The notes under the pieces were generated by a model. That model had not been told where the DNA came from. It worked only from the letters and a program-made list of their open reading frames with translations, and did no database searches. From Escherichia phage vB_EcoS_GZMU_E2010, in the sequence record PV845598.1: DNA of 44,255 nucleotides; one strand, given 5' to 3'. Numbering within the stretch: the first letter of the stretch is position 1; every line of letters starts with the position of its first letter. Below are positions 4,102-4,130 of the stretch, piece after piece. The position numbers were made by a program, and so were the translations under genes.

Positions 4102-4130
4102 TTGACAAGTGAATAGTTCGCTATTATAGT
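4102..4130 (+). promoter_or_regulatory. sigma70-like early promoter (class I)
   Basis: TTGACA, 17-bp spacer containing GAATAGTTCGCTAT, TATAGT; divergent from the HTH gene. Confidence 0.5.

Follow-up and report, generated by a model that had tools for sequence, protein, structure and literature searches.

A conserved AATAG-N4-CTATT palindrome in host-type promoters of Kagunavirus phages as a candidate operator of a 434-Cro-like protein

Introduction

The operators of phages 434 and P22 share a layout in which two 5-bp half-sites flank four central bases, with the sequence ACAAG-N4-CTTGT in 434 and TTAAG-N4-CTTAA in P22. In phage 434, the outermost adenine of the half-site is read by residue Gln28 of the Cro protein.

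Members of the Guernseyvirinae (Kagunavirus, Jerseyvirus) are common candidates for therapy and biocontrol and have been suggested as models for synthetic biology, and their transcription programme is essentially unstudied. The Kagunavirus/Jerseyvirus group is reported to be strictly lytic (PMC9825357; PMC7203180). Two PHIRE analyses have each listed seven "promoters" in such phages, one for fBC-Eco01, with the consensus tgAATAGTa-ccTATTat-T ascribed to a phage RNA polymerase (PMC9825357), and one for VB_EcoS-Golestan, for which the accessible text of the paper gives no consensus (PMC7203180). The fBC-Eco01 consensus shows the motif AATAG-N4-CTATT discussed below, and the Golestan set presumably corresponds to it. 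A literature search for binding, footprint or transcription start site studies of the helix-turn-helix (HTH) regulator or the promoters of this subfamily found none.

In this article, the placement and conservation of AATAG-N4-CTATT in one of these genomes and its relatives are described. With moderate confidence, the motif is interpreted as a 14-bp operator for a dimeric HTH protein, most probably the 71-aa 434-Cro-like protein encoded by the phage itself.

Genome Organization

The window, which denotes the whole stretch of 44,255 bp that was analysed, is a complete-genome-sized Kagunavirus (Guernseyvirinae; K1G/K1H-like E. coli siphophages) that matches fFiEco03, hz69, LM02P1 and others with ~90% identity over ~75-85% of its length. 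The gene layout was inferred by synteny with annotated relatives (Table 1), and the resulting strand-block map, which is 94% coding, was used for assigning sites to coding or non-coding sequence. The HTH gene is the sole minus-strand gene within the replication block. The annotations of three relatives include no RNA polymerase gene, and neither a second repressor nor an integrase is listed in them.

Several other features of this plan were recorded. The first gene 3' of the promoter at 4102 encodes a homologue of the lambda antirestriction protein Ral (4161-4340, plus strand; Pfam Ral, E 1.6e-30), and an HNH endonuclease with an AP2-like DNA-binding domain, probably a homing endonuclease, lies within the replication module (4887-5381, plus strand). 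Near-identical bidirectional terminator hairpins, AAGGCCCC-N4-GGGGCCTT, which recur in relatives, are found at three of the convergent strand-switch points (12637-12656, 24527-24546 and 31911-31930).

Table 1. Gene blocks, promoters and palindromes of the window; "added" marks sites that the original prediction had passed over
Feature	Position	Strand	Palindrome or basis
Replication and recombination genes	~870-12630	+	synteny
71-aa HTH_3 (XRE/434-Cro-like) gene	3822-4037	-	Pfam, PDB sequence match, AF2/Foldseek
HTH-proximal core, class-II-like -10 TACTAT	4065-4081	-	one-mismatch AATAT-GGTA-CTATT (4068-4081); no recognisable -35
Class I promoter, TTGACA-17-TATAGT	4102-4130	+	perfect, 4112-4125, centre ~-18.5
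Class I promoter, TTGACT-17-TATAGT	6684-6712	+	6694-6707, one mismatch (CTACT); perfect in most relatives
Class I promoter, TTGACG-17-TATAGT	10330-10358	+	perfect, 10340-10353
Tail genes	12661-22369	-	synteny
Class II promoter	22478-22506	+	perfect, 22494-22507; drives superinfection-immunity/phosphoesterase block
Small block: superinfection immunity, phosphoesterase	22522-24354	+	synteny
Head and neck genes	24551-31286	-	synteny
Imperfect palindrome abutting an extra AATAG half-site	31531-31553	none	AAAAG-TCAA-CTATT (31531-31544); contains the predicted 16-bp palindrome, which is everted; added
Class II promoter (TTGCGT)	31606-31634	+	perfect, 31622-31635; drives variable cargo gene 31661-31906
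Single gene	31661-31906	+	synteny
Packaging, lysis and many small genes	31934-44255, continuing 414-8	-	synteny
One-mismatch copy	34280-34293	none	AATAGCATACTATA; significance uncertain; added
Third promoter type, TTGACT-17-TATATT	39886-39914	-	one-mismatch ACTAG-TTGA-CTATT, 39906-39919, over -35; added
Class II promoter	43139-43167	-	perfect, 43138-43151; drives small-gene block
Perfect palindrome	43296-43309	none	AATAGTAACCTATT; no recognisable -35; added
Class II promoter, TTGCAC-17-TACTAT	440-468	-	perfect, 439-452, over -10, centre ~-12.5

Enrichment and Placement of the Palindrome

The 14-bp core AATAG-N4-CTATT occurs in the window in 7 perfect and 6 one-mismatch copies, which makes 13 against 0.92 expected, and no more than 4 copies with at most one mismatch appeared in any of 100 shuffles. 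The longer form KAATAG-N4-CTATTM, a 16-mer, has 6 exact matches against 0.00 expected. The inverted repeat on which the original prediction was built is thus real and enriched, and six of the eight sites listed there are exact, the other two (4067-4082, AATAGTACCATATT, and 6693-6708, ending in CTACT) having one core mismatch each. Among all perfect palindromes of the type 5+N(0-10)+5 in the window, AATAG-N4-CTATT ranks first with 7 copies. It also takes first place in the same census of a second Kagunavirus (L001, 7 copies) and of two Jerseyviruses (L040, 4 copies; L041, 6 copies), the runners-up being GC-rich terminator stems and hairpins. Perfect copies number 6-8 per complete Kagunavirus genome and 4-6 per complete Jerseyvirus genome, and there are none in two Cornellvirus genomes.

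The sites are concentrated outside genes, since 11 of the 13 are non-coding and, of the remaining two, the one at 10340 lies in the final codons of an ORF inside the class I promoter at 10330, leaving the site at 15384 as the only truly coding copy. A scan of coding against non-coding sequence, which could have contradicted the regulatory reading, therefore came out in its favour. A supposed spacer-less version of the repeat at 31538-31553 fared differently; the sequence (AACTATTCGAATAGTT) is present, but its half-sites are everted (CTATT-CG-AATAG), so that it is not a compressed operator; it consists of the right half of the imperfect site at 31531-31544 and the adjoining extra AATAG.

The perfect copy at 43296-43309 lies between a DUF551 gene and a terminator hairpin (43261-43282) and is kept in relatives, and the one-mismatch copy at 34280-34293 falls beside a hairpin in the 36 bp that separate the portal gene from the head-morphogenesis gene. 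A reading of the repeats as RNA hairpins was set aside by reasoning only, given a stem of just 5 A/U-rich bp and class I sites that lie upstream of the start site.

Promoter Architecture

The coordinates predicted for the class I and class II promoters could all be confirmed in the sequence. The three class I promoters, with 10-11 of 12 consensus positions, are the best three sigma-70 consensus matches in bases 1-20000, and the one at 4102 drives the Ral-like gene together with the genes for replication and recombination. The class II promoters match the sigma-70 consensus at just 7 of 12 positions (TTG.. / TA...T) which leaves them under the scan threshold, yet they are kept in front of every gene block that switches strand. 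A promoter of a third type, read leftwards from 39914, agrees with the consensus at 10 of 12 positions and lies 3' of the lysis-gene terminator and 5' of the small-gene and terminase block; its palindrome is kept in both Kagunavirus and Jerseyvirus, in the latter with the mismatch moved to the other half.

These promoter types place the palindrome in different registers. It spans -25 to -12 (centre -18.5) in class I and -19 to -6 (centre -12.5) in class II, where the -10 hexamer falls within the right half, and it is centred at about -33.5 in the promoter at 39914. The offset from the -35 hexamer is 4, 7 or 10 bp, plus one case overlying the -35; one Jerseyvirus promoter has the palindrome 7 bp from the -35 and a -10 of TATTAT. 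With its flanks, the Kagunavirus element reads gTGAATAGTnnnCTATTATnnTT, which yields the -10 TATAGT when placed forward, as in class I, and TACTAT when reversed, as in class II. Three registers relative to the -35 and -10 cannot be explained by contacts of RNA polymerase.

Beside the HTH gene, the picture is less complete. A weaker promoter had been proposed for this gene, and its class-II-like -10 and leader (TACTATTCAC) are present; a recognisable -35 is absent. The one-mismatch form at 4068-4081 is conserved in Kagunavirus, and its Jerseyvirus form has two mismatches. The view that the HTH gene sits between back-to-back promoters consequently stands as far as two palindrome-bearing cores are concerned and fails for the missing -35 on the HTH side. 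The palindrome is also missing from TTGCTT-17-TATCTT (815-843; TTGCTT-17-TATACT in relatives), a candidate promoter for the helicase-primase operon, so not every promoter would be controlled, and a statement covering all promoters is too strong.

The genes directly 3' of the conserved class II promoters differ among phages (window 22478-22728 and 31606-31906 compared with L001 and L049-L053); for example, an 81-aa ORF of the window stands where fFiEco03 has a sliding-clamp-like gene. In this respect, the class II promoters act like portable cassettes that precede accessory "moron-like" genes.

Conservation and Selection

Five orthologous promoters were aligned from ~40 Kagunavirus loci, with 21-30 unique sequences for each. 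Minor alleles made up 0.6% in the half-sites (5 of 50 columns variable), 1.3% in the -35 hexamer (2 of 29) and 2.0% in positions belonging to the -10 only (3 of 19), compared with 14.3% in the free N4 positions (14 of 16), 11.1% in the rest of the spacer (19 of 33) and 6.5% downstream (55 of 122). The half-sites are under purifying selection, and their difference from N4 plus spacer has a permutation p < 1e-5. Among orthologues of the promoter at 4102, the palindrome follows the -35 after 4 or 5 bp of highly varied sequence, with TGAATAG and CTATTAT unchanged throughout. In 14 Jerseyvirus loci, (T)AATAG-N4-CTATT(A) is found at the orthologous promoters, with unrelated N4 and flanking sequences. 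The comparison with promoters of related phages thus shows the palindrome kept at orthologous positions in both genera, and the claim that a shared sequence-specific DNA-binding factor acts over and above sigma-70 needs gains support from invariant half-sites, a drifting N4 and spacer, the three registers and the repetition of this pattern in Jerseyvirus.

One objection is that no dedicated binder exists and that the palindrome was inherited when promoter cassettes were duplicated and has persisted through contacts with RNA polymerase or through -10-like hexamers that overlap it. The right half does overlap the -10 (CTAT/TATAGT; TA/CTATT), and the published PHIRE analyses called the repeats simply promoters. 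However, the left half, at -25 to -21 in class I and -19 to -15 in class II, is as invariant as the hexamers, the N4 between the halves drifts, the register changes from one promoter type to another, by 3, 6 or more bp, the perfect copy at 43296-43309 has no promoter, and a phage RNA polymerase is not annotated in relatives. Sigma-70 makes no base-specific contacts where the left half-site lies. Because the left half falls outside such contacts and the register varies, the needs of the polymerase do not explain the conservation, and this objection appears highly improbable. Instead, two unvarying arms of 5 bp, four free bases between them and a centre-to-centre distance of 9 bp make up what the alignments strongly support as the signature of an operator for a dimeric HTH protein.

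The 71-aa HTH Protein as Candidate Binder

The protein encoded at 3822-4037 matches HTH_3 (PF01381) over residues 11-65 with 48.1 bits against a cutoff of 23. Among proteins in the PDB, 434 Cro is the closest in sequence (E 4.9e-7), and 434 repressor and P22 C2 are also matched. The AF2 model (pLDDT 79.5) has five helices (5-17, 21-28, 32-39, 48-57 and 62-69) in the compact fold of the 434 Cro/CI type, including a helix 2-turn-helix 3 unit, and the best Foldseek matches are 2cro (40% identity) and 1pra, with TM scores of 0.73-0.79. Aligned by HMMER with 434 Cro, the protein retains the Gln that corresponds to Gln28 and differs at the positions of Gln29, Ser30, Gln32 and Leu33. This combination agrees suggestively, at the level of aligned sequence, with a half-site identical to that of 434 at positions 1, 4 and 5 and different at positions 2-3. 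Helix 3 (SQGAINQLALG) is invariant in nine aligned Kagunavirus-type sequences, down to 77% identity.

The position of the gene is also informative. It is associated with an imperfect site (4068-4081) and a perfect one (4112-4125) whose centres are 44 bp apart, an arrangement common to both genera; in Jerseyvirus, the HTH-proximal site is more degenerate and the divergent class I site has a fixed mismatch (CGATT). An HTH gene accompanied by imperfect and perfect or weakened sites has the layout of an autoregulated repressor. The proposal that the XRE-type protein is the binder is therefore plausible with respect to its position, its 434 and P22 relatives and its invariant helix 3, and it is weakened by the Jerseyvirus orthologue, which has only ~51% identity and a recognition helix changed at 4 of 7 positions (SQGAINQ versus SQSLITH) while the half-site stays the same. 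Different helices can, however, read one operator, as exemplified by lambda CI and Cro. On the whole, sequence and structural model provide moderate support for the 71-aa protein as the leading candidate. No relative of this protein closer than 48% identity was found among prophages of bacterial species-representative genomes.

Co-variation between recognition helix and half-site was considered as a further line of evidence. All nine Kagunavirus-type helices 3 are identical and therefore uninformative. The Cornellvirus HTH protein is 39-42% identical and its helix 3 (TQSAISH) resembles that of Jerseyvirus. A different helix with the same site in Jerseyvirus, together with a similar helix and no motif in Cornellvirus, means that co-variation is not demonstrated. 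As a counterpart motif in Cornellvirus, ATTAG-N4-CTAAT / TATTA-N6-TAATA was rejected, since 3 sites against 0.97 expected are not significant alone; a Klebsiella phage, klb_E, whose HTH protein is 45% identical, was dropped as a test case, having just 2 genes in common with the window. Regarding the Cornellviruses themselves, TATTA-N6-TAATA stands at three orthologous promoter-like sites (14066, 26544 and 33280 in L043; 13949, 25366 and 32561 in L044), and their divergent 71-aa HTH gene is co-oriented with the helicase-primase gene.

The same Jerseyvirus comparison can be turned toward a host protein, namely that a transcription factor or nucleoid protein of E. coli and Salmonella binds AATAG-N4-CTATT and that the phages tune their promoters by it. 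The half-site is identical in phages of the two hosts, yet the phage HTH proteins are only ~51% identical with different helices, and because E. coli and Salmonella have nearly all transcription factors in common, conservation across the phage genera also fits a host factor. Several points make a host factor unlikely: Salmonella-infecting Cornellviruses have the same genome plan without the motif, and the weakened operators beside the HTH gene in both genera look like autoregulation. Moreover, to our knowledge, there is no enterobacterial factor with the consensus AATAG-N4-CTATT; OxyR (ATAG-N7-CTAT) and TrpR (ACTAG-N4-CTAGT) differ from it in spacing or in a key base.

Another phage protein might be responsible, such as the HTH_17/Xis-like early protein, a weakly NinH-like protein (37884-38120) or an unannotated small protein. 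The presence of HTH_17 tracks the motif, as both Kagunavirus and Jerseyvirus have it and none was detected in Cornellvirus, and an RNA-seq study of K1B4 placed an HTH-domain gene, probably HTH_17 by gene order, among four "early" genes. HTH_17, the other recognisable HTH protein of the relatives, is nevertheless missing from the window, where all operators, including the seven perfect palindromes, are retained, and two further loci (L014, L027) likewise have no HTH_17 match. Its loss could be recent, so its absence from the window does not settle the matter. For HTH_17 proteins of the Xis type, direct repeats are the usual targets, not 14-bp dyads, and the NinH match lies under the Pfam cutoff; apart from this sub-threshold match, Pfam scans of 30 small ORFs of the window returned no other DNA-binding domain. 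Binding by one of these proteins is accordingly considered decidedly unlikely, and the 71-aa protein is retained as the preferred binder.

Other Intergenic Elements

The two longest intergenic regions of the window each contain a copy of a ~150-bp element (630-790 and 31393-31545, plus strand). The copy upstream of the spanin gene is found in every complete Kagunavirus examined, a covariance model of the element matches the region upstream of the spanin gene in Jerseyvirus Ent3 (42 bits, E 3e-5), and L040 has the element at 5750-5891. Compensatory changes occur in several helices, with one pair represented as AU in 12, CG in 11 and UA in 9 cases. The inner hairpin shows at least 6 different stem sequences, all pairing, and one hairpin is swapped between genera (GCTTG..CAAGC to CGCT..AGCG). 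G-U pairs outnumber A-C pairs by 9 to 2, weakly favouring the plus strand of the window. Single-sequence folding of the element is not significant, and Rfam gives no family match anywhere in the window, nor in 560-880 at a relaxed threshold. The element also holds a conserved TTGACT-17-TAAGCT on the minus strand (749-777 and 31511-31539). It could be a structured RNA (a small RNA or leader) or an origin-like DNA element.

Repeats of the GGAATAA/TTATTCC type (GAATAA-N-TTATTC palindromes) cluster at 31555-31600, between this element and the class II promoter, and recur upstream of the spanin gene in Jerseyvirus (L041, 12530-13811) and Cornellvirus (L043, 25438-26597); they may be iterons or the sites of another regulator.

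An HTH_17/Xis-like early gene is present in 35 relatives, and the window has instead a 47-aa ORF with two CxxC pairs (874-1017), the start of which is also encoded in the sequence flanking loci L014 and L027 on their downstream side. Ahead of this ORF, GCTTGAAGTACC...GGTACTTCAAGC (824-863) forms a perfect inverted repeat of 12 bp that overlaps the candidate promoter TTGCTT-17-TATCTT.

Proposed Regulatory Circuit

Host RNA polymerase would start transcription from the promoters of both classes and from the one at 39914, whose host-sigma-70 cores would have the operator built in, in either orientation, within the spacer (class I), over the -10 (class II) or over the -35 (39914). As the Cro-like dimer accumulates, it would occupy the operators and exclude RNA polymerase. 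Since the operator overlaps the spacer, -10 or -35, a bound dimer would occlude the polymerase, and repression is the direction of control that follows from position. Perfect operators, in front of replication genes and accessory "moron-like" genes, would be shut first, and shutdown would come last at the imperfect ones, in the HTH gene's own core and in the promoter that supplies the packaging and structural genes, although this temporal order is speculation. The timing of class I relative to class II could not be taken from the sole Kagunavirus RNA-seq study, in which phage reads account for at most 9%, time points run to 120 min and the DNA polymerase is called "late"; the label "early" given to both classes in the original prediction is thus not supported.

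A more ambitious version of the circuit, possible but doubtful as a whole, would cast a single 434-Cro-like protein as master timer in a siphovirus subfamily that is strictly virulent and lacks its own polymerase and sigma factor, by means of a portable operator cassette of ~20 bp that provides a -10 in either orientation (TATAGT/TACTAT) and of graded operator quality that sets the order of shut-off.

If the 71-aa protein does bind, one protein-operator pair would explain how ~10 host-type promoters are coordinated without a phage RNA polymerase. The operator reading would also correct the published mis-annotation of these sites as "phage RNA polymerase promoters", explain why annotators recurrently name a "repressor" in phages that do not lysogenise, and offer a compact, orthogonal set of repressor, operator and promoter for engineering.

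Comparison with Known Systems

The motif itself has been published before; its reading as an operator, its use in two orientations, the pattern of selection and the connection with the HTH protein have not. Neither the fBC-Eco01 nor the Golestan paper mentions dyad symmetry, two orientations or a connection with the HTH protein. Promoters of a phage RNA polymerase would be a poor description of these sites, as the -35 and -10 hexamers are of host type and the three annotated relatives list no such enzyme. As a whole, the system would be a tidy but fairly ordinary phage gene switch, one that changes no general concept of phage regulation.

Controller proteins of restriction-modification systems (C.AhdI, C.BclI, C.Csp231I) are likewise small HTH_3 dimers of similar size and fold that use palindromic boxes before their own gene for autoregulation. 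However, C-boxes (of the GACT-N3-AGTC type) are confined to the region ahead of the C gene, whose product initially serves as an activator, whereas the sites described here lie inside many core promoters, predicting repression. In addition, restriction-modification genes do not adjoin the HTH gene, whose neighbours are the helicase-primase and Ral-like genes, and the sites are spread over ~10 loci.

P22 C2/Cro and DicA of the E. coli Qin prophage share the HTH_3 fold, and P22 also the operator geometry; in GenBank, an HTH orthologue is labelled "transcriptional repressor DicA". Sequence similarity to C2 and DicA is weaker (E ~3e-3), and these proteins control a lysis-lysogeny switch, unlike the lytic group considered here.

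The closest parallel is provided by 434 Cro and repressor with their operators OR1-3 and OL1-3. The resemblance is incomplete: the half-site is AATAG rather than ACAA(G/T), the residues aligned to Q29, S30, Q32 and L33 are different, a CI partner, tripartite operator, integrase and lysogeny module are all absent, prophage copies were not found in bacterial species-representative genomes, and the operators are scattered over ~10 promoters instead of forming two clusters in an immunity region. A lambdoid immunity region with CI and Cro is therefore not what is found, the locus having a single HTH gene, for the 71-aa protein, and a pair of sites separated by 44 bp. On the side of the DNA, the 5-4-5 dyad with invariant half-sites and variable N4 would fit the 434 type, in which a 14-bp operator has 5-bp half-sites ending in G around 4 variable central bases. 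As in 434, the candidate operators overlap core promoters and the candidate regulator gene lies beside divergent promoters, and the 71-aa five-helix HTH_3 protein of the phage finds in 434 Cro its best match in sequence and fold.
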